Positions 2,954 to 63,783 of a DNA stretch of 64,000 nucleotides are shown here, in pieces. This DNA is from Sphingomonadales bacterium (lineage in GTDB: Bacteria; Pseudomonadota; Alphaproteobacteria; CAZZKF01), in assembly GCA_046756385.1 (NCBI GenBank), contig JBHHWG010000001.1, positions 7,272-71,271 on the forward strand, written 5' to 3'. Each line of letters begins with the position of its first letter. The stretch's first letter is position 1. Below the pieces are notes generated by a model. That model was not told the DNA's origin. It did not search any database and worked only from the letters and a program-made list of their open reading frames with translations. A program made the position numbers and the translations under genes.

Positions 2954-3151
2954 CTTGAAATCTATCTACCTCTCTGCTGACTGCCACATCCCGCGACGGG
3001 CTGGCAGGGGACGAAGTCACCGCACCACTACCATGCTGTATGGCGCCCTTACAATTAAATTTTCAGCGGCAAAAATCGACCGGTCAAATGAGTTTCTATC
3101 AAGGAAACTTGGTATAACAGTTATTCAAAACCAATATGAGGAGCGCGACCC

Positions 3152-3943
3152 GTGATCGTCGAACAAATCTGGACCGGTAACGCCTACCGAAACTTCAACT
3201 ACCTGATCGTTTGTCCGGAAACCGGCGACGCCCTGGCTATAGACCCGCTGGACCACGAAAAATGTCTGAAAGCCGCCACGGACAATGGCTGGCGGATCAC
3301 TCAGCTGCTCAATACCCACGAACATCACGACCATATCGCCGGCAACGATCCGGTAATCGCCGCGACGAACGCCAGGTTGTTGGCCCACGCCAATGCCCGC
3401 GATACCATTTCCGGCATCGATGTGGGACTCGCCGCAGGCGATGTCGTCAAGGTCGGCAAGACGGTCGAGCTCGAAGTATTGGACACGCCGGGCCATACAA
3501 TGAGCCACGTGTGCCTGTTGTCGCACACTGACACACCGGCCCTGTTCTGCGGCGATACCCTGTTTAACGCCGGCGCCGGCAATTGCCATGCGGGCGGTCA
3601 TCCGGCCGAGCTTTATAGAACCTTCGCCACCCAGTTCGTTAAGCTCCCCGATGCGACCCAGGTCTATCCCGGACATGATTACATCGCGCACAATCTGGCG
3701 TTTACACTGGATCGGGAGCCGGGCAATGAGCGGGCCCGCATGTTGTTGGAAAGCGTTGAAGACCAGGATCCCGCCAGGGCGATGGTGTTGACCCTGGGGC
3801 TTGAGAAGGAGATCAACACGTTTTTCCGGCTCCACAATCCCACGGTGATTGCGCGGTTGCGCAACGAATTCCCCGATTTGCCGGATGAGCCCGATCCCGA
3901 AACCGTTTTTGTGAAGCTCCGGGACCTCCGAAACAAGTGGTAG
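3152..3943 (+). CDS. gloB: hydroxyacylglutathione hydrolase (glyoxalase II), MBL fold
   Basis: 263 aa. THEHHDH metal-binding motif and DTPGHT motif; length typical of GloB. GTG start preceded by a GAGGAG RBS. Confidence 0.85.
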   Translation: MIVEQIWTGNAYRNFNYLIVCPETGDALAIDPLDHEKCLKAATDNGWRITQLLNTHEHHDHIAGNDPVIAATNARLLAHANARDTISGIDVGLAAGDVVKVGKTVELEVLDTPGHTMSHVCLLSHTDTPALFCGDTLFNAGAGNCHAGGHPAELYRTFATQFVKLPDATQVYPGHDYIAHNLAFTLDREPGNERARMLLESVEDQDPARAMVLTLGLEKEINTFFRLHNPTVIARLRNEFPDLPDEPDPETVFVKLRDLRNKW

Positions 3944-3980
3944 GGACGGGGGCCGCCCTCCCGGTTTGCTGGGGCGTTCG

Positions 3981-4367
3981 TCAGTAGCGACCAATGATGT
4001 AGCGGCTGCCCTGAACGACATAGGGTTCGCCATGCCGGTCGTAGCACATGGTGCCGCCGATACGAATTCTCCGTCCATGGTGGTCGTAGCCCGGCTTGCT
4101 CACGGGGTGGCAGGCGGGGGCAGGGTGGTGGCCGCTACCATAGACATGCCGCAGGGTATGGGCCGCGCCGCGGGCAATTTGATGGCCGATGGCGTGACCC
4201 AAAAAATGATGTGTGTGGCGCCGGCCGTGATGGCCATGATCCGAATGATGGCCATGGTGTCGCACGCCGTGGTGATGCTGGTCACTGGCCCGGGCGGCAT
4301 TGTTGAACGCCAGGCCGATGGCGACCGCGCCGGCGGCTACGGTAACGATCCTGATGAAATTGGTCAT
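3981..4367 (-). CDS. secreted histidine-rich protein, putative metal-binding
   Basis: Internal ATG at 4367 follows a GGGAG RBS and gives 128 aa. Signal peptide MTNFIRIVTVAAGAVAIGLAF, then a region with about 25 His (HHHGVRHHGHHSDHGHHGRRHTHH...) and two Cys. The longer 159-aa ORF start has no RBS. Confidence 0.5.
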   Translation of the reverse strand: MTNFIRIVTVAAGAVAIGLAFNNAARASDQHHHGVRHHGHHSDHGHHGRRHTHHFLGHAIGHQIARGAAHTLRHVYGSGHHPAPACHPVSKPGYDHHGRRIRIGGTMCYDRHGEPYVVQGSRYIIGRY

Positions 4368-10239: not shown

Positions 10240-11394
10240 ATGCTTTGCGGGCAGGTGGGGGTGATATTGTCAGAAAATAAGATCCTAGGCGTTGACGACG
10301 TCGCAAAGTTGCTGGCCAACCCGTCAGCCGAGAACCGCGCGGATGCCGTTTCCAGGGTTGGGGCGGAGTTTGCCCGTGGCAGCCTGGACGAAAAATCCCG
10401 TAAGCTTGCCCTCGAAATATTCAGCCTCGTTTTACATGATGTCGAACTTCGGGTGCGTCAGGCGCTCGCCGAATCCGTTAAGGATAATCCGTCAATACCG
10501 CACAACCTGGCCAACACCCTGGCCCAGGATGTCGCCGAAGTGGCGATCCCGATTCTCCAGAATTCGACCGTTCTGGATGACGCGGACCTGATGAATATCG
10601 TAAGGAATTTCGATTCAGACCATCAAGCCGCGGTGGCCATGCGGCCGCGGGTCTCAGAAACTGTCGCCGATGCGCTGGTTGAAACCGGCGATGAGAAGGT
10701 CGTTGCGACTTTGGTGTCCAATGACGGGGCGCAAATTGCGGAACAGGCGATGTCGACGGTGCTCGATAAGTACGGCGATAAAGAATCCGTTAATGCCCCC
10801 TTGGCGCGACGACGCGAATTGCCGATTACCATTGCCGAACGGCTGGTGACGCTGGTTTCCGAATCCTTGCGGGAGCATATCGTCACCCATCATGAAATTT
10901 CCGGCGATCTGGCGAGCAACCTGATCCTTGAGAGCCGGGAACGGGCGACCATCGGCTTACTCGGGCCGGACGATGAAAAAACGGATGTTCTGGATCTGGT
11001 TGACCAGCTTTACGACCATGGCCGGTTGTCCTCGACTTTAATCCTGCGTGCCTTGTGCATGGGGGACATTGATTTTTTCGAGGCGAGCCTCGCCAAGCGC
11101 GCCTCTATTCCGCTGACGCACGCCTATAAGCTGATCCAGGATGAAGGGCCGTTGGGGCTTCAGTCGTTATTCAGGAAGGCCGGGATTTCATTACGCCTTC
11201 TGGAACTGACTAAAGTCGCCCTGAAAGTGAAGCGGGAAACCGAATATGATGGCGGAGAAAATGACCGCCAGCGCTTCCGCTCAAGAATGATCGAACGGGT
11301 TCTCACGACCCTGGAGACCGGGATCGATCCTGAAAACCTGGATTATTTCATTTCGAAACTGGGGGCCGAAGACACTGGGACCGGCGCGTCTTAG
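10240..11394 (+). CDS. DUF2336-like helical repeat protein
   Basis: 384 aa, all-alpha with repetitive HEAT/ARM-like architecture. Resembles the DUF2336 proteins common in Rhodospirillales. Start codon uncertain (alternative GTG). Confidence 0.5.
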   Translation: MLCGQVGVILSENKILGVDDVAKLLANPSAENRADAVSRVGAEFARGSLDEKSRKLALEIFSLVLHDVELRVRQALAESVKDNPSIPHNLANTLAQDVAEVAIPILQNSTVLDDADLMNIVRNFDSDHQAAVAMRPRVSETVADALVETGDEKVVATLVSNDGAQIAEQAMSTVLDKYGDKESVNAPLARRRELPITIAERLVTLVSESLREHIVTHHEISGDLASNLILESRERATIGLLGPDDEKTDVLDLVDQLYDHGRLSSTLILRALCMGDIDFFEASLAKRASIPLTHAYKLIQDEGPLGLQSLFRKAGISLRLLELTKVALKVKRETEYDGGENDRQRFRSRMIERVLTTLETGIDPENLDYFISKLGAEDTGTGAS

Positions 11395-11403
11395 AACCTG
11401 GTT

Positions 11404-14385
11404 TTACTTTAATCGCCCCAGCGCCTGGGCGATCAAAACATAAACCTTGCCGATATTGGACGACAAAAACGTGACACTCAGCGCGCCGTCGCGGTCACAG
11501 GTCTTCGCCCGGGTCAACAGCTCCTCGAATTGTTCCATGAATCGTTGCGTATGGTTGCGGAATTCCGGATCAATCCGGTGTTTCCGGGCTATCTTGAGCC
11601 GCACGGCGCGGCTTCCCATATTCAATATCCGCCTCGAAAACAGACTGCGATCGCCCTCAACATAGCGATGCCAAAGCTTGTCGGAGATATCAGTCTCAAG
11701 AATTCGGCCGATATCGACGGCCAGCGAGTTGAGAGTCTCGATCACCGTTGTCGAATTGCGCAGGAAGGAGTCCCGCGTGACGTCGTTCTGCTCGTTCGCG
11801 AGCTCTTTTTTGCGCGTCAGCAAATCAGTTGCCGCCTCGGCCACCAAACGAGATTGTGCGGCGACGGTTTTGCCGGTCAGCTCGGCGGCTTGAGCGGCAG
11901 CCTGCGAAGCCATGGCCAGCTGATCCGTGCGGTCGGCCACGGATTGGGTGGTCTCCGCCAGGGTATCGGAGATTCGGCCGCTAACATCGACTAGCCCCTC
12001 CGCATGTTCGCGCGCCACCTTATCAGCGTCCTGAAGGCGCCGAGCAACCTTGTCGAACTCCTGCCACGTTTGCTCGCGAGTGGTCGTTAAGTCTTCCCGC
12101 GCTTCGCTCAGGCGGGTAATCAGTTGGCCGGCCTGGTCCGCTAGCTGGCCGGCCGCCTTGTTGAACCGTTGCTCCGCCTGTTCCGAGGCCGATGCGATCA
12201 AGTCGGCCCGGGCCACGAATTGATCGCCCAGCGCCTCTATTTCCGTAAAACGCACACTGACCTCGCCCAGCGCTTCCATGATTGCCGCAATGCGCTCGCG
12301 CCCGGTTTCCTCAAAGTCGAACAGTTGTGCGGCCTGCTTGCCAAGCTCGCTGCCCGCCTCGCTCACCTGGGATGCCGACTCGCGCGAGGTTTCGGACAGC
12401 TTCGCCATGTACCTGCGCAGCGCTTCAAGGGCGTCCTCGGCGGTCTTTTTGCCGTCATCGACAATCTCTCCAAGGCGTTTCCCCGCACCCTCGAACGCTT
12501 GTTCGGCTTCGCCAATTTCCAAAATCGAAGCGGCGGCGCCAGACCGCACGGCGTCAGCGGTTTGGACGAACTGGCCCTCGGCGGACGCCACTTTATCCAC
12601 GATATCGCTTAAAGCGGCAGCCAGGCCCTGGACATGCCCCTCAACTGTCTCGGCCGCCGCGGCCGTGGACTGGGCAATCTCGTCGGACAGTTCGCGCAGC
12701 CCAGCCGCCCCGGACTTAAACTTGCCCTGAAGGCCGTCAACGCGCTCCCCGGCGTCGGCAACTGCTTCGTTCAGATTATCCCTTGCCTGATCGAGCGATT
12801 GACCCAGAGTGGCGACGGTTTCGGCGGCGGTTGTGACCGCTTCGCCGAGGCCCTCGGTGGAACCGCTCAAGGCTTCCGACGACTGTTTGAAACGAGCGAG
12901 CGCCGCTTCGGCTTGTTTTTCGAGGTCCCTGGCGCTGGCTTCCAGGAAGTCGCGCGCCTGCTCGGTTCGGCTGACCATCCGGTCGGCGGAATGATCCGCG
13001 GTTTCGGAAACCTCCCTGGCTTGCTCCTGAAACTGGCCCACGGCGCTCGTCATCCGTTCCAGCGCGTCGTCGACCGAACCGCGCCACGCCGAGGTCACGT
13101 CTTTAGCCTTTTGCCCCATGTCCTCGGTGGCGGCCGAAATCCGCTCGGCGGCCGTGCTCGATGCCTCGGTCAGTTTGGCTGCCTGTTCATCGAAAGCCTC
13201 GCCGGATTTCGTAAACAGGCCCGCGGCCTCGGTCACGGCCGAGACCACACTTCCGGTCTGCTCGCTCAGGGTCTGGCCGGCCTCCACCGCTTTTTGAGTG
13301 ACCAGCTCGGTGTTTGAAGCCATGGCCTCGGCATGGCCGCCCACGGTCTTTTCGATTTCATCAGCGCTCGCGGCAACCGCTTTCGCGGTTTCGTTGAGTT
13401 GCTCCGCACTCTGGGACAAAGCGCCTTTGATCCGCTCTGTTTGGGTCGCCGTGTTTTCGGAAGCGGTCTGCAGTCCCTGGCACTGCTCCTGCAATACGCG
13501 ACCTAAACTTTCGGCTTTCTCCGCCGTATTTTCCGACGCGGAGTCGAGTATCCCCATGTGGAACTCCAGCCGCTCACCCAGCCCGGTCGCCTTTTCTCCG
13601 GTTTTCTCGATGATCTTTTCCAGGCTGTCCGCCTGGCTCTGCAACAATTCGCGCGCCTTTTCAGCCTGTTTGGCGGCCTTGCCGGTAGCCTCATCAAAAT
13701 CGGCGGCGCCTTTGGCGATCAAGTCTGAAGCCTGCGACGCCTGGCTGGTCAATTGCTTGGACAACCTGGCGAAATCCTTGGTGTCACCTTGCAGCGATTT
13801 CTTAATGCCGCCGGCTTGCTGTGCCGCCTCCGTGGCGGCTTGCCTGAGTTCCGTGATCTGGCCACGGAATATCGCCTCTATCCGTGCAATCTCGACCCGG
13901 GCATGACTGGTCGCCGCATTCAGCTCATTGACCTGCGTCCGCAGGCCATCCTTGATCGTTTGGACCTTGGCCTCGGCTTCCCCGGCGGGATAAAGAAAAT
14001 CGGACAGATTTTGCCGCAAAGCCGCCGCCTCGGCTTTCATCTCCCGACCTCGGCGCAAATAAAGGGCAATCAGCCAGAACACGGCGACCGGGGCGAAAAT
14101 GCCGGCCAAGGCCATCGCCATTTCATGTGGCGGGGCCGCAACGAAATCCGCCCAAGCCTGGCGCGAGTGTATATAAAGGCTCGTCAACGCAATCCAGACC
14201 AGGCTCGCTCCCAAGGCGACGAGAAACAGCCAGCCCCGTTCAGGCGCTTCTCCGAGATTTGGTGTCGCCACGGGCGCAGGCCCCTGGGGTTTTTTCCGGT
14301 TCGATTTTTGCTTGGCCATGAGGTTATCGATGATGGAAATCCCAAATGAAAATACATGGGAATTTCTCCCATTTCGCGCTAGCAT
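11404..14385 (-). CDS. membrane-anchored giant coiled-coil protein (TipN-like architecture)
   Basis: 993 aa. GAGGA RBS before the ATG at 14385. Two N-terminal TM helices, about 800 aa of low-complexity A/E/Q/T-rich coiled coil, and a distinct roughly 130-aa C-terminal globular domain (KLWHRYVEGDRSLFSRRILNMGSRAVRLKIARKHR...). Confidence 0.6.
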   Translation of the reverse strand: MLARNGRNSHVFSFGISIIDNLMAKQKSNRKKPQGPAPVATPNLGEAPERGWLFLVALGASLVWIALTSLYIHSRQAWADFVAAPPHEMAMALAGIFAPVAVFWLIALYLRRGREMKAEAAALRQNLSDFLYPAGEAEAKVQTIKDGLRTQVNELNAATSHARVEIARIEAIFRGQITELRQAATEAAQQAGGIKKSLQGDTKDFARLSKQLTSQASQASDLIAKGAADFDEATGKAAKQAEKARELLQSQADSLEKIIEKTGEKATGLGERLEFHMGILDSASENTAEKAESLGRVLQEQCQGLQTASENTATQTERIKGALSQSAEQLNETAKAVAASADEIEKTVGGHAEAMASNTELVTQKAVEAGQTLSEQTGSVVSAVTEAAGLFTKSGEAFDEQAAKLTEASSTAAERISAATEDMGQKAKDVTSAWRGSVDDALERMTSAVGQFQEQAREVSETADHSADRMVSRTEQARDFLEASARDLEKQAEAALARFKQSSEALSGSTEGLGEAVTTAAETVATLGQSLDQARDNLNEAVADAGERVDGLQGKFKSGAAGLRELSDEIAQSTAAAAETVEGHVQGLAAALSDIVDKVASAEGQFVQTADAVRSGAAASILEIGEAEQAFEGAGKRLGEIVDDGKKTAEDALEALRRYMAKLSETSRESASQVSEAGSELGKQAAQLFDFEETGRERIAAIMEALGEVSVRFTEIEALGDQFVARADLIASASEQAEQRFNKAAGQLADQAGQLITRLSEAREDLTTTREQTWQEFDKVARRLQDADKVAREHAEGLVDVSGRISDTLAETTQSVADRTDQLAMASQAAAQAAELTGKTVAAQSRLVAEAATDLLTRKKELANEQNDVTRDSFLRNSTTVIETLNSLAVDIGRILETDISDKLWHRYVEGDRSLFSRRILNMGSRAVRLKIARKHRIDPEFRNHTQRFMEQFEELLTRAKTCDRDGALSVTFLSSNIGKVYVLIAQALGRLK

Positions 14386-14545
14386 TCCTTATCCTCTCTG
14401 ATACGTCAATAACTTAGCACGCGACGCTGGGCTTCACGAGCGACTATTGCTAACTTGACGAGGGCGTCTTGCGCGACAAGGACAGCGGGCCAAATTCATT
14501 CGACGTGCTCTTTCGTCAGGAACAGCTATTGTATAGGCTCAGGCC

Positions 14546-14800
14546 ATGACCAAGGCGAGCAGACGGCAGGCGCGATCCATAAGTTCGGCGCAACGGCGCT
14601 ATTTGGAGCTAGGTTTGGCTCAGCCGGGCGGCAAATTGCCGCTGTTCGACCCCGACGGCCAGGAGATTGACGCGCGCACCATCCGTGCCTGCATCAAGCA
14701 TGGCTGGGCCGAGCCCTGGATCCAAAATCCTGTTAAAAGAGATTGGTTGGTGTGCCGGATAACGGAACAGGGACGTGAGGCTCTTGGCCAGAAAGATTAA
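14546..14800 (+). CDS. small hypothetical protein, possible winged-helix DNA-binding fold
   Basis: 84 aa; basic N-terminus. The C-terminal segment TIRACIKHGWAE...WLVCRITEQGREAL resembles a recognition helix plus wing. Weak RBS. Sits in a 450-bp gap upstream of the receiver gene. Confidence 0.35.
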   Translation: MTKASRRQARSISSAQRRYLELGLAQPGGKLPLFDPDGQEIDARTIRACIKHGWAEPWIQNPVKRDWLVCRITEQGREALGQKD

Positions 14801-14834
14801 CAGTTGGCTTTAACGGGACCAGCAGGGACGAAAT

Positions 14835-15386
14835 ATGACGTTGTACGATTTGGAGCGATTCTCCGTGCTGTTGGTCGAAGACAGTCCCTTCATGCGTTCG
14901 ATGATGCTGAATGCACTAAAGGTTTTGGGTGTCGGCACGGTCACGACGCTTGAGGACGGGGGCCGGGCGATCGATTTCCTGCATCTCGTGCATAGCAATC
15001 CAATGCGGGCGGGCGTCCAGACGGTCGACATCATCGTGTCCAACTGGGAAATGTCGCCGGTGGACGGCATGATGCTGTTGCGGTGGGTGCGTCGGCACAA
15101 GGATTCGGAAGACCGGTTCATACCGTTCATTATGGTTTCGGGCCATTCCGAGACAAACCGGGTCCAGCAAGCTCGCGACCTGGGCGTCACCGAGTTTCTG
15201 TGCAAGCCGTTCTCGATCAAGGCCTTGGGCGAAAAACTGCTTTCCGTCATCGACCGGCCCCGGCAGTTTGTTCATACCAAGGATTATTTCGGTCCCGATC
15301 GGCGGCGAACGGATTTGCCGTTTGAAGGGCCGGAAAAGCGCAAGCTGACTGACGAGAGCGAGGATGTGGAGATTGTCCATGGCTAA
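14835..15386 (+). CDS. CheY-like receiver domain protein with Asn replacing the phospho-acceptor Asp
   Basis: 183 aa. Aligns to CheY along its length. The acid pocket (LLVEDS), Ser/Thr87 (IMVSGHS) and Lys109 (LCKPF) are conserved. The D57 position reads VSNWEMSPVDG, i.e. Asn instead of Asp. A roughly 50-aa charged C-terminal tail follows. Confidence 0.75.
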   Translation: MTLYDLERFSVLLVEDSPFMRSMMLNALKVLGVGTVTTLEDGGRAIDFLHLVHSNPMRAGVQTVDIIVSNWEMSPVDGMMLLRWVRRHKDSEDRFIPFIMVSGHSETNRVQQARDLGVTEFLCKPFSIKALGEKLLSVIDRPRQFVHTKDYFGPDRRRTDLPFEGPEKRKLTDESEDVEIVHG

Positions 15387-15888
15387 ACCGGCGGTCAAGG
15401 TTCGGTTTTACCGGTTTCAGAATCGCCTCAAGAAAAAGGCTGGCGGGGCGGGCGCCAAGGGTGTCGGGGCGATCGCTCCGGAAGTTCTGCTGCGGGCCCA
15501 GCAGGCGCTGGACAGGGTGGCGGAGGATTATCCGGACTGGGTGTCGAAGTTGATCCGGAATCTCTATGAGGAACATGCGCATTGTCTGGAGACCACGGAA
15601 CGGCGGCGAGGCTATTTTGGCAACATCCACCGAATTGCCCATGACATGAAGGGGCAGGGCGGTACCTTCGGTTACGACCTGATTTCAACCTTTTCCGAAT
15701 CGCTGTGTGACGTTACCAGCCGGACCGCGGGAACCAGCGACAGCCATGTCGAGATCGTCAAAGCCCATATCGATGCCATGAACGCCGTGATCAAGGAGCG
15801 GGTCAAGGGTGACGGTGGGGAGGTCGGTCAGGCGATCGCCAAGAGCCTTCAGGACGCGATCGGCAAATTCGAAAACAGGAAACATTAG
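15379..15888 (+). CDS. Hpt (histidine phosphotransfer) domain protein
   Basis: About 170 aa with the HDMKGQGGTFG motif (HxxKGxxxxxG). The ATG at 15379 overlaps the receiver stop by 8 nt (ATGGCTAA); 15364 is an alternative start. Confidence 0.65.
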   Translation: MAKPAVKVRFYRFQNRLKKKAGGAGAKGVGAIAPEVLLRAQQALDRVAEDYPDWVSKLIRNLYEEHAHCLETTERRRGYFGNIHRIAHDMKGQGGTFGYDLISTFSESLCDVTSRTAGTSDSHVEIVKAHIDAMNAVIKERVKGDGGEVGQAIAKSLQDAIGKFENRKH

Positions 15889-15961
15889 ACACATTTCCAG
15901 GCATTTGATTCCATAAGAGCTGAAAGTGCTCTAAAGTTCGGAACCAAAAACAGAATTAGTC

Positions 15962-17533
15962 ATGGCCGCATCAAAACCCAAGCCCCGCAAGCGCCCATCG
16001 TCAGCCGCGTCAGCGACCGCCTTCAGAAAGCATTTACACAAGGGGCGGGCATTGATCGCCCGTAGCCGCTACCAGGACGCGATTAACGAGCTCGAGCGCG
16101 CCCACGGCATGCGGCCCGGCGACCCCGATGTGCTTTTCAGCCTCGCCGTGGTCTCAGACAGGTTGGGATCGCCGACCAAGGCCGCCGATCTATATGGCGC
16201 GGTGCTTCACAGGCGGCCTGATGCCGTCGAAGCAGCCAATAACCTGGGTAATGTTTTGGTTGCGATGGGCGAATATGAAGCCGCGGTGCAGACCCTGCGG
16301 GCAGCGATCGAACGGGAACCGGACGTTCCCGAGTTATGGCTCAGCCTGGGAAAGGCCCAGGCGGCCACGGCGGACAGGGCCAACGCCCGGATTTTTTATC
16401 AGCAGGCACTGAGCCTCAAGCCCAAATATGGCGAGGCTTATGCCAACCTGGCTGAGCTTTCCTGCGACGAAGGAAACCCGCGGGAGGCCATGGTTCATTT
16501 CGAAAAAGCCATGGCTCTTCTGCCCAAGGATCCCCAGGTGCGGTTCAATTTCGCGGTGACGCTGCTGGCGCTGGGGGATCTGGAGCGCGGCTGGGCTGAA
16601 TATGAATGTCGCCTGAAACCCGGAATGAGCCGTGCGATCGATTACCGTCACGGCCTGAACCGCTGGCGCGGCGAGCCGCTGGACGGTCGCACGGTCCTGG
16701 TCTGCGCGGAGCAGGGCCTTGGTGACCAGGTGTTGTTCGCGAGCTGTTTGCCCGATCTGATCGCCCGGACCGGCCACTGCATCATTGAATGTGAAGCGCG
16801 ACTGGTGGCCCTGTTCGAACAGTCGTTCCCCGAGGCTACGGTGCACGCCTACGAGGGCGGAAAGACCGATGGGCGTTGGGTGTTCTCCTACGACTGGCTG
16901 AGCGATGTGCCGCCGCCGGACTGCTATATCGAGCTTGGCGGTCTGCCGCTTTTGTTGCGGCGAAATATTTCCGATTTTCCGCGCCCAAACAAGTATTTAA
17001 AAGCGAAAGCGAATGTATCGGATGAATGGCGGGTCAAGCTTGGCGCGCTGGGGGACGGCCTCAAGGTCGGCATCTGCTGGCGCAGCATGTTGATGACCGC
17101 CGAACGGCGCAAGGATTATTCGGACCTCGACGACTGGGGTCCGATCCTGAGCCAGAAGAACGCCTGTTTCGTTAATCTCCAATATGACGAATGCGCCACT
17201 GAGCTCGATCGGGCGCGCAAGAAATTCGGGATCGAGATCCACGAGTTTCCTGACCTCGATCAAATGAACGACTTCCCCGGCGTTGCGGGCCTGATGTCGG
17301 CTCTAGACCTGGTCATTACGGCGCCGACCATGGTCTCGGGCCTGGCCGGCGCACTCGGCGTGCCGACCTTGCGCCTGATGCGAATGCGCGAATGGACCAC
17401 GCTGGGCAGCGATTTTGAGCCGTTCCAACCCTCGGTCACGCCGCTTTTCCCCGACACACCCGGCGACTGGGATGCGGTCCTGGAAAAGGCGGCGGCAAAG
17501 CTGGCGCACCTCGTTGGATCGCCGGGGCGTTAA
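15962..17533 (+). CDS. TPR-repeat protein fused to a GT9 (heptosyltransferase)-like C-terminal domain
   Basis: 523 aa. N-terminal TPR repeats. The C-terminal half has GT9 signatures (GLGDQVLF and the C-terminal LVITAPTMVSGLAGALGVPTLRL). Confidence 0.7.
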   Translation: MAASKPKPRKRPSSAASATAFRKHLHKGRALIARSRYQDAINELERAHGMRPGDPDVLFSLAVVSDRLGSPTKAADLYGAVLHRRPDAVEAANNLGNVLVAMGEYEAAVQTLRAAIEREPDVPELWLSLGKAQAATADRANARIFYQQALSLKPKYGEAYANLAELSCDEGNPREAMVHFEKAMALLPKDPQVRFNFAVTLLALGDLERGWAEYECRLKPGMSRAIDYRHGLNRWRGEPLDGRTVLVCAEQGLGDQVLFASCLPDLIARTGHCIIECEARLVALFEQSFPEATVHAYEGGKTDGRWVFSYDWLSDVPPPDCYIELGGLPLLLRRNISDFPRPNKYLKAKANVSDEWRVKLGALGDGLKVGICWRSMLMTAERRKDYSDLDDWGPILSQKNACFVNLQYDECATELDRARKKFGIEIHEFPDLDQMNDFPGVAGLMSALDLVITAPTMVSGLAGALGVPTLRLMRMREWTTLGSDFEPFQPSVTPLFPDTPGDWDAVLEKAAAKLAHLVGSPGR

Positions 17534-38585: not shown

Positions 38586-38612
38586 CTGGCACTCTCTGTT
38601 GAAGAGTGCTAA
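38586..38612 (+). promoter_or_regulatory. CIRCE operator (HrcA binding site)
   Basis: CTGGCACTC-N9-GAGTGCTAA matches the CIRCE consensus TTAGCACTC-N9-GAGTGCTAA. Lies about 60 nt upstream of groES. Confidence 0.75.
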
Positions 38613-38672
38613 AACACTGACACGTATTGTGAATATCGAACATAACAGGCTGGTTTTTTTGGAGGAATACAA

Positions 38673-40627
<1,955 letters not shown>

Positions 40628-40649
40628 GCCCAAGCCAACCAGGCAAAAA

Positions 40650-62117: not shown

Positions 62118-63509
62118 CTATTTGCTGATATGGAGTTGGCGCAAATCGTTGCCTATGGCTCTAAAGGCGGTGCGTAAATCTTCGTTGGATGGGGAGTTGA
62201 AATATTTGGATGAATCGCTGGCGCACTGGCGATAGAGGTTTTGCGTGGTTGCGTTGTTGAGGGCGAAGGTGATCGTGTAGATGACGATGCCCTTGGCTTT
62301 CATGTTGGCGCACACTTCGGCCAGACGGCTGTCCAGCACCGCCGTGGCGCCGGAATAGGAAGCGGTGCCCAAAACCCGATCATCGAGATATTTATATGCC
62401 GTGTAGTCCGACCGGTAGGGCGAGTAAAATATTCTTTTGCCAAACTGATTGACGCCGTCTGTCATCAGAATGGCGGCCTTGGTGTTGTCATCTTCGGCGT
62501 AGGCCCGGCCTTGAGTGAACGGACGCTCGGGCGAGAGCACCCGCCACCCCCAGACCATTCCCAGGTTGCTGAACGTGCCGCCCCACCAAATCTCCATGGC
62601 GTCGATCGCGGCGGTGATCTTCGACTTGGTGCCGGTCAGCGGCGCAATTGGCGTCGGGCAGGCGACATTCGGTCCTCTGACCCGCCAGGGATAGAACGAT
62701 CGGATGACCACCGGCGGCCACCGGTTGTCGACGCCACTGTCGTAGCGATAAACCTTCCATTTGTTGCCGGCGTTCATCGGACTGTCGAGCACGTCATTGG
62801 GGTAAGGTCGCGCCAGGACGCAGCCTTTCCATTTTGTGTTGTTGCTGGGGTCAAAAAATCCCTGTCCAACCTGCGTAACCAGGTTTGGCGCGTCAGCCCC
62901 GACATTGACCGCCGCGGCATAAGGCACGACACCGACCCGGAGCTGATCGTGCACCAAGGCGTCTCCGAACAGAATGTCGACGAGTTCGCGGGCCGCCAGG
63001 CGCAGGGTTTCAAGCTTTTGACCGCGCATCGAGCCGGTATTGTCCAGCACCAGCACGACTTCCATGGCGCTTTCCTCGCGCACGATTTCGGTCGCCGCCG
63101 CGATCGTCAGGTGATCGAACCCGGCCAGCTTCATGAAGCTCGTTTCCATTTCAATCCGCGCGGACACGCGAACGACCGAACCATCGACCTCGACCACCGA
63201 TTGCCCCTTGAGCGCGGCCGCGGCATTTGGATAATTCGCGTTCATGAAGCGATCGAATACGGCCTGTGGCGTCGCGCCGGAATCAAGCGAGGCGCCGACC
63301 GCCAGCCCCGCCGCGTCCAACGCGTGGGATAGCCGGGCGCGTGCGTGATAAGCACGGCTGACATCGACCGCGACCCCCGCGGAAAGCATCAGCGGAACCG
63401 TGGCAAGAGCCAGGTAACTGGTGATCCCGCCCCGCCGGTCGCCGAGCAAACGGTTCCAACCTGCTCGAAGGGCCGCGGGCAGCTTTTTTGTTATCGATAG
63501 TATCGCCAT
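62118..63509 (-). CDS. TadE/TadG-like Flp-pilus assembly protein with vWA domain
   Basis: N-terminal TadE-like hydrophobic segment (GGITSYLALATVPLML), then a vWA domain with MIDAS motif VVLVLDNTGSM. Start is the ATG at 63509 or the upstream ATG at 63563. Confidence 0.7.
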   Translation of the reverse strand: MAILSITKKLPAALRAGWNRLLGDRRGGITSYLALATVPLMLSAGVAVDVSRAYHARARLSHALDAAGLAVGASLDSGATPQAVFDRFMNANYPNAAAALKGQSVVEVDGSVVRVSARIEMETSFMKLAGFDHLTIAAATEIVREESAMEVVLVLDNTGSMRGQKLETLRLAARELVDILFGDALVHDQLRVGVVPYAAAVNVGADAPNLVTQVGQGFFDPSNNTKWKGCVLARPYPNDVLDSPMNAGNKWKVYRYDSGVDNRWPPVVIRSFYPWRVRGPNVACPTPIAPLTGTKSKITAAIDAMEIWWGGTFSNLGMVWGWRVLSPERPFTQGRAYAEDDNTKAAILMTDGVNQFGKRIFYSPYRSDYTAYKYLDDRVLGTASYSGATAVLDSRLAEVCANMKAKGIVIYTITFALNNATTQNLYRQCASDSSKYFNSPSNEDLRTAFRAIGNDLRQLHISK

Positions 63510-63783
63510 TTTTCGTCTGTTCAGAATGGCTTCAGCCCCACCCGGACTGCGCGTCGCTCTCACGGAATGCCCGGACTTGGCGCCGAGGTCGCGACCATTA
63601 GATTTATTGCTATCAACGGTATATAAACAACTCGTTAGGAATCGTTAAAATTCTTCGGGCCATTCCCACCACGGCCCAGCATGCTGTCGGATTTCTTTAC
63701 AGGCTGCTGTATCGGTAACCAATTGAATTTCATGGATATTTTGTCAGACGTGCTCCGAACCAACCCATCCGGAGCCGCCGCAC

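Follow-up and report, generated by a model that had tools for sequence, protein, structure and literature searches.

The DNA analysed here, the window, is a stretch of 64,000 nucleotides (nt) from a Sphingomonadales bacterium (contig JBHHWG010000001.1, positions 7,272 to 71,271 of the forward strand), and all coordinates below count from its first letter. On its + strand two genes overlap, one for a Cle-like receiver of the CheY type (183 aa, 14835..15386), the other for a stand-alone histidine phosphotransfer (Hpt) protein (169 aa, 15379..15888); a small conserved open reading frame (ORF) of 84 aa (14546..14800, + strand) ends 34 nt upstream of the receiver. Judged from the sequences compared below, the locus appears to form one operon (small ORF, receiver, Hpt) that encodes a signalling module of two proteins, whose translational coupling is conserved. 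The ORFs 14916-15398, 14810-15250 and 15247-15642 of the opposite strand were taken for spurious products of the high GC content, since homology supports the + strand only.

The receiver matches the Pfam family PF00072 (Response_reg) with an E-value of 1e-16 and 61.5 bits, for a cutoff of 30.2. Its BLASTP alignment with CheY of Escherichia coli pairs Glu15/Asp16 with Asp12/Asp13, Ser102 with Thr87 and Lys124 with Lys109, and puts Asn70 (codon AAC, 15042..15044, + strand) at the place of Asp57, VSNWEM standing opposite ISDWNM. Of the five catalytic residues only the phospho-accepting Asp is missing, so that the claim of the sequence-only reading, made from the letters of the window without database searches, of an Asn at the acceptor position of an otherwise intact receiver is borne out. 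The AlphaFold2 (AF2) model, built with 34 homologues in the alignment, shows a (beta-alpha)5 fold in which strand beta3 carries Asn70 at its C-terminal end, and its best PDB matches by Foldseek are CheY structures (template modelling (TM) score 0.83-0.87, E about 4e-9). As the Asp that defines canonical response regulators is missing from its sequence, the protein counts by definition as an aspartate-less receiver (definition in PMC12632262); it is atypical for this class because it differs by a single isosteric change only. We found 414 close homologues, almost all of about 183 aa and 57-76% identical, in Kordiimonas, Emcibacter, Pedomonas, Iodidimonas, Eilatimonas, Luteithermobacter and many alphaproteobacterial metagenome-assembled genomes (MAGs).

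After helix alpha5 the receiver runs on for 43 residues, RPRQFVHTKDYFGPDRRRTDLPFEGPEKRKLTDESEDVEIVHG, including an arginine-rich region (residues 141-173, RPRQFVHTKDYFGPDRRRTDLPFEGPEKRKLTD; 15255..15353, + strand) that is a putative binding site for cyclic diguanosine monophosphate (c-di-GMP). Compared by phmmer with all PDB sequences, this tail alone has a sole match, the c-di-GMP-sequestering peptide of CleD (6SFT, E 1e-4). The arginine-rich region of the Cle proteins consists of a tandem [YF]xGP[DE][RK]R motif with an Arg upstream and an Asp downstream, together with a conserved Arg of helix alpha4 (PMC5677366). The window receiver has the repeats YFGPDRR (151-157) and FEGPEKR (163-169), Arg143 upstream, Asp173 downstream, and, inside helix 107-115 of the AF2 model, Arg114 (15174..15176, + strand), the Cle hallmark arginine of helix alpha4; in CleD it is R113 of this helix that contributes to c-di-GMP binding (PMC5677366). 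In an exhaustive search of 1.8 billion cluster representatives, the first repeat ([YF]xGPxRR) was present in 147 of the 150 nearest representatives at 50% identity, and the alpha4 Arg in 145 of the 151 aligned sequences (the window receiver and these 150). Some of the relatives have, as in the window, receiver and Hpt on separate proteins (the split family, compared as 120 metagenomic clusters), others have both on one polypeptide (the fused family, 117 proteins). D155, R156, R157 and R169 of the tail are invariant in both (120 + about 117), and Arg114 is found in 120/120 split and 117/117 fused relatives.

The AF2 model gives the tail little order, with a predicted local distance difference test (pLDDT) of 54-67, which is consistent with a peptide that stays unfolded until its ligand binds (PMC7382256). 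The CleD peptide binds by itself a c-di-GMP dimer at about 100 nM (PMC5677366; structure in PMC7382256); it wraps the intercalated dimer and, with the alpha4 arginine, turns the receiver on without phosphorylation (PMC5677366, PMC7382256). For the activation of Cle proteins c-di-GMP is needed and the acceptor residue is not (PMC5677366), the natural residue of CleD at this position being Glu70. Every sequence-level feature of the Cle family is thus found in the window receiver, which makes its assignment well supported at that level. The sequence-only reading had taken the protein for an anonymous pseudo-receiver; this has to be corrected, since the match to 6SFT, the invariant motif and the alpha4 Arg identify a Cle-type arginine-rich c-di-GMP-binding region, which brings with it a ready input signal and a precedent for activation independent of phosphorylation (PMC5677366).

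The product of 15379..15888 (+ strand) is a CheA-P1-like Hpt with the motif AHDMKGQGGTFGY and the residues His88, Lys91 and Glu107. The profile of its family aligned with CheA P1 by hhalign gives a probability of 84% and sets His88, a putative phospho-histidine (codon CAT, 15640..15642, + strand), on CheA His48, as does HMMER; the HMMER alignment to 8C5V chain C sets Lys91 on Lys51 and Glu107 on Glu70 of CheA. Out of 44 family members, 42 match the Pfam Hpt model with E-values of 0.01 or below (best 1.9e-7), and the position of Glu107 is acidic in 104/120 clusters. The AF2 model is an all-helical bundle (pLDDT 82.8) whose best natural PDB matches are CheA P1 domains (TM about 0.7), the CheA3P1-CheY6 complex among them. 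The Hpt partner announced by the sequence-only reading is confirmed by the hhalign result and the modelled bundle; it has 443 homologues, and the public annotation of the same contig gives it an identical start (P0121, 169 aa). Residues 1-24 (15379-15450) form a basic helix of low model confidence in which Arg9, Arg12, Asn15 and Leu17 are invariant, and a stretch RLPxxLRxKL like this N-terminus also lies in the linker of the fusion proteins; the helix could be an element binding a partner, the membrane or a nucleotide.

The two genes meet in a coupling junction (15366..15386, + strand) where the Hpt ATG at 15379 and the receiver TAA at 15384-15386 make the 8-nt overlap already noted in the sequence-only reading, and where GTGGAG (15366-15371), within the receiver codons Val178-Glu179, is the Shine-Dalgarno sequence. 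We fetched 80 related genome loci with their flanks (5.5 kb). The Hpt gene directly follows the receiver in 79 of them, the exception being a truncated contig, and in 76 of 78, belonging to several orders, a start codon (ATG or GTG) is so placed that the overlap with the receiver gene is exactly 8 nt; an embedded GGAG precedes the overlapping start in the related loci. Val178-Glu179 is invariant in the split family and not kept in the two fusions read, which suggests that a Shine-Dalgarno constraint makes these codons dual-coding. The small ORF was recovered by tblastn in about 45 of the 80 loci. It is probably co-transcribed with the receiver and possibly a third component of the module; it matches no Pfam family, and a homologue stands upstream of the fused gene of Oceanibaculum pacificum (L082, 9220-9468). 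In a promoter and terminator scan of 14300-16100 no signal exceeded what shuffled sequence gives, and the operon contains no + strand terminator.

In 46 of the 150 nearest representatives, receiver, arginine-rich region and Hpt follow one another in this order on one chain of about 350-375 aa (REC-ARR-Hpt), and a further homology search gave more than 1000 such fusions, whose named hosts are Rhodospirillales (Aestuariispira, Oceanibaculum, Marivibrio, Curvivirga). A precomputed Hpt match exists for 2 of the 120 fusions among those listed. Pfam is mostly blind to this Hpt domain, which probably explains why the link between receiver and Hpt was overlooked; in the literature we found no paper connecting Cle-type tails with Hpt domains. 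That receiver and Hpt work as a unit is strongly indicated by three features taken together: the fusion of their genes, their strict adjacency and the conserved coupling of their translation.

The acceptor position of the split family is occupied by Asn in 94 and by Asp in 26 of the 120 clusters (Asn about 77%), and by no other residue; it was readable in 79 of the 80 loci, with 60 Asn and 19 Asp, or 61 and 19 with the window. The Asn that the sequence-only reading had proposed to follow across orthologous pairs is therefore conserved in most of them, the rest having Asp. In the window and the 60 Asn loci its codon is AAC 37 times and AAT 24 times, and the Asp is likewise encoded by both GAC and GAT. 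The use of both synonymous codons indicates that the Asn is selected and not accidental; a sequencing error or a pseudogene as the source of Asn70 is ruled out by the two Asn codons and by the high conservation of the protein. In these sequences the acceptor toggles only between two isosteric residues, six other amino acids being one mutation away. Around it, the acid pocket, Ser/Thr102, Lys124, Arg114, Arg156, Arg157 and Arg169 are each found in 120/120 clusters. The Hpt His of the split family is present in 120/120 clusters and in every readable locus except one, from an uncultured Sphingomonadales MAG (L012), where the Hpt motif reads RRIAFDMKGQGG, with Phe for His, and where the receiver is among the few with Asp.

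In the fused family the pattern is reversed: the acceptor is Asp in 116 and Glu in 1 of the 117 proteins, and the His position holds His in 86, Leu in 28, Arg in 1 and Asn in 1, the His being lost in 31/117. About half of the more distant fused representatives have another residue in place of the His, and all acceptor variants with Glu or Ser are without the His. Since these fusions keep the Asp and lose the His, a direct His-to-Asp transfer within the pair is dispensable while the pairing is kept. By contrast the Asn lineages keep the Hpt His, which must then serve a third party. The phospho-site retained in each clade is, by this conservation, under tight purifying selection. For comparison, about 2% of receivers are without Asp and about 0.9% of Hpt domains without His (PMC12632262). 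A neighbour-joining tree of receiver + Hpt, computed with the acceptor column removed, implies at least three acceptor switches; rooted with the fused relatives, all Asp, parsimony makes Asn ancestral to the split family (3 changes, vs 5 for an Asp ancestor), with reversions from Asn to Asp in the Emcibacter clade, in L012 and in L051/L061. This Asn ancestor with its three reversions is tentative.

As to the output, flagellin, flbT or flaF lies within the fetched 5.5 kb or so in about 30 of the 80 loci, and in Luteithermobacter (L083) the order is DUF2336, coiled-coil, receiver, Hpt, few genes, TPR (tetratricopeptide repeat) protein, flbT, flaF, flagellins. Cle proteins for their part bind FliM (PMC5677366). 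The sequence-only reading had seen in the neighbours a hint of signalling at the cell pole or envelope; a flagellar link fits better because flagellin, flbT and flaF adjoin the module in these loci. It had also pointed out that no histidine kinase is adjacent, and indeed the only ones of the 64-kb window, NtrB and NtrY, are at least 12 kb off in a conserved ntrBC-ntrYX cluster, while no kinase occurs in three annotated related loci.

Altogether, we hold it moderately probable that the locus encodes a c-di-GMP-controlled, CheY-like receiver paired with a P1-like Hpt, and that the pair couples c-di-GMP to a phosphorelay controlling motility. The second messenger would bind the tail and Arg114 and set the conformation of the receiver and its binding or release, the receiver docking on the Hpt in the way CheY docks on P1. 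In the Asp70 lineages, and likewise in the fusions with both Asp and His, a phosphoryl exchange between receiver and His88 would be possible. In the Asn70 lineages, including the window, the phosphoryl would not be taken and the receiver may be a pseudo-substrate under c-di-GMP control, which gates, sequesters or senses the Hpt. The latter would receive and give up its phosphate through partners whose genes lie elsewhere, such as a kinase core of the CheA type or a hybrid kinase: as its histidine is still under selection, the Hpt is presumably phosphorylated by third parties and passes phosphate to third parties, and this is the direction of flow that we infer. As a result, the level of c-di-GMP would be read jointly with the state of the phosphorelay, with the flagellar motor or motility control as the likely output. 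The idea favoured in the sequence-only reading, a phosphorylation-independent receiver that regulates or sequesters an Hpt, is compatible with everything found here, and its overall interpretation partly supported.

Several points nevertheless weigh against this proposal. The binding of c-di-GMP by the tail is predicted from the conservation of the motif; the Asp equivalent to D172 of CleD is displaced by one residue in the window receiver and variable across the family, and the second tail repeat is degenerate in many orthologues. The Hpt of the window stays below the Pfam threshold (22.9 vs 24.6 bits), and its Foldseek matches have the weak E-values (0.08-0.6) that helical bundles usually give. 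The 64-kb window holds no flagellar, che, GGDEF or EAL gene. Finally, the Asn ancestor is built on neighbour-joining trees.

A more specific form of the proposal, which we consider rather unlikely, is that the Asn70 receiver is a non-covalent reader of the phosphorylated Hpt (Hpt~P): the phosphoryl of His88 would sit in the intact pocket of Mg2+, Ser102 and Lys124 without being passed on, the binding of Hpt~P would by itself be enough to switch the receiver, and the response would be gated by c-di-GMP on the tail. If this were true, the module would detect the coincidence of a phosphorelay signal with a second messenger, and the re-gains of Asp would be lineages toggling between the reading and the accepting mode.

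Other explanations were weighed against this one. Phosphorylation on an alternative residue, floated in the sequence-only reading, would have Asn70 receivers still accept phosphate on the neighbouring Ser/Thr69; for the D57N form of E. coli CheY, phosphorylation of Ser56 by CheA was reportedly found by Appleby and Bourret (1999, listed among the references of PMC8828458). The residue before the Asn is indeed Ser or Thr in 92 of the 94 Asn-type clusters, and the metal-binding acids, Ser/Thr102 and Lys124 are fully conserved. However, Ser69 is equally found in the Asp-type orthologues (23/26) and in CheY, and is thus inherited and not co-selected; two Asn-type clusters have Ala or Cys there, the phosphorylation of Ser56 in CheY D57N is reportedly slow and seen only without phosphatase, and Cle proteins need no phosphorylation. 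This route is weakly supported and in our opinion improbable. An enzymatic deamidation turning Asn70 into Asp after translation, which would make the protein a pro-receiver with a canonical acceptor on demand, would also accommodate the intact catalytic pocket, the tolerance of Asn or Asp only, and the apparent return of Asp three times from Asn ancestors. On the other hand no deamidase is linked to the module in the loci inspected, Asn-Trp is a poor context for spontaneous deamidation, and we know of no precedent in receivers, so that we give this explanation very little credit.

It may also be that the tail has no small-molecule role, and that the Asn70 receiver binds or sequesters the Hpt constitutively as a ligand-free pseudo-receiver, which is the model of the sequence-only reading in its literal form. 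The pairing and the Asn are both real, and receivers that inhibit P1 domains are known, for example the CheY domain of FrzE which controls P1 in Myxococcus; yet outside the active site no part of the protein varies less than the tail, which matches a c-di-GMP site defined by experiment, and such a ligand-free role appears improbable. A further alternative denies the unit itself: the receiver would be a plain c-di-GMP effector with a decayed phospho-site, the Hpt would serve an unrelated relay, and adjacency and overlap would be what is left of a pair once fused or engaged in phosphotransfer. The loss of one phospho-site or the other (Asp replaced by Asn in the split family, His by Leu in 28/117 fusions) and the lack of a kinase linked to the module speak for this uncoupling. 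Against it stand the exact 8-nt overlap kept across orders (76/78 loci) and the independent fusion proteins. Moreover the whole active site is 100% conserved, and about 200 sequences have only the isosteric Asp or Asn as acceptor, none of them Ala, Gly, Glu, His, Tyr or Val, each a single mutation away. Conservation is also higher in the receiver than in the Hpt (57-72% vs 47-62% identity). We therefore regard uncoupling as unlikely, and keep to the receiver-Hpt pair under c-di-GMP control.

This pair can be compared with several known systems. Like the Cle proteins of Caulobacter crescentus (CleA-E), the window receiver is a single CheY-like receiver with a tandem [YF]xGP[DE][RK]R tail and an alpha4 Arg, and like CleD it lacks the acceptor Asp, CleD having Glu at the same residue number, 70. 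The Cle proteins are activated by c-di-GMP and associated with the flagellum; both features would be shared by the window family. The family differs in forming a separate clade, at most 40% identical to Cle, with REC-ARR-Hpt fusions as nearest relatives, and in being coupled to or fused with an Hpt, a word not mentioned in PMC5677366. Unlike CleD, it has Asn or Asp as acceptor, not Glu, and keeps the full phospho-pocket.

The Hpt resembles CheA P1, and particularly the CheA3P1-CheY6 pair of Rhodobacter sphaeroides (3KYJ), in being a helical bundle with a CheY-like partner; with CheA P1 it shares the motif AHxxKGxxGTFG and the triad of His, Lys and Glu. Unlike CheA P1 it is a free protein of 169 aa, with an additional conserved basic N-terminal helix and no kinase domains, and its partner receiver cannot accept a phosphoryl in most lineages. 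The nearest functional analogue in the literature is HmrX (CC_1220) of C. crescentus, a stand-alone Hpt predicted to be CheA P1-like (PMC11481889), which genetics connects with c-di-GMP and with the change between motile and sessile life, and for which the hybrid kinase HmrA is the proposed partner (PMC11481889). HmrX, however, is not reported beside a Cle gene.

RitR, FrzS, ChxR and HP1043 are also receiver folds without a phosphorylatable Asp encoded by orphan genes (PMC4395418, PMC12632262). In receivers of this type the pocket is usually further degenerated and Glu is the commonest replacement, whereas the window receiver has one change of Asp to Asn in an otherwise perfect pocket. Unlike theirs, the change in the window family is evolutionarily reversible and comes with a dedicated Hpt partner. 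The same logic, taken from the opposite partner of the relay, is that of the plant pseudo-Hpt AHP6, which has Asn for the phospho-His and acts by competitive binding; AHP6 is eukaryotic and, unlike the window receiver, has no second-messenger site.

A large sister clade of the Cle proteins is in this way tied to a P1-like Hpt, in more than 400 split, translationally coupled pairs and more than 1000 fused proteins. The reciprocal loss of the phospho-sites—Asp to Asn with the His kept in the split family, His to Leu with the Asp kept in the fused one—is a natural experiment, which asks what a receiver-Hpt pair does once transfer is abolished. The pair is also a testable entry to the convergence of c-di-GMP and His-Asp signalling on motility, and there are cultured hosts for both acceptor states, e.g. 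Kordiimonas (Asn) and Luteithermobacter (Asp).

Among the neighbouring genes, the one divergent from the module encodes a membrane-anchored coiled-coil protein of 993 aa (11404..14385, - strand), which has two hydrophobic segments at the N-terminus, an extended coiled coil and, at the C-terminus, about 120 conserved aa without Pfam match. The next gene after it encodes a DUF2336 protein (10240..11394, + strand), on which the literature gave nothing informative; both are syntenic with the module in most loci. On the other side lies a TPR protein (15962..17533, + strand), 31% identical (E 2e-70) to that of Luteithermobacter (L083, 14491-16179). By homology and synteny its homologues flank the flbT-flaF-flagellin genes in relatives; they stand directly beside them in Luteithermobacter and Emcibacter, which hints at a flagellin-related role. 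The GT9-like label that the sequence-only reading had put on this protein is not supported, its C-terminal 303 aa matching no Pfam family and no PDB sequence.

The rest of the window is core housekeeping: ftsB-pdh-lipA, ispDF, dusB-ntrBC-ntrYX, metG and recJ. No Pfam family is matched at E <= 1e-3 by two long ORFs of the - strand, 38609-40633 (674 aa) and 3125-4078 (317 aa). At 62118-63563 (- strand) a TadE/G-like + VWA protein suggests a Flp/Tad pilus locus at the right edge of the window.

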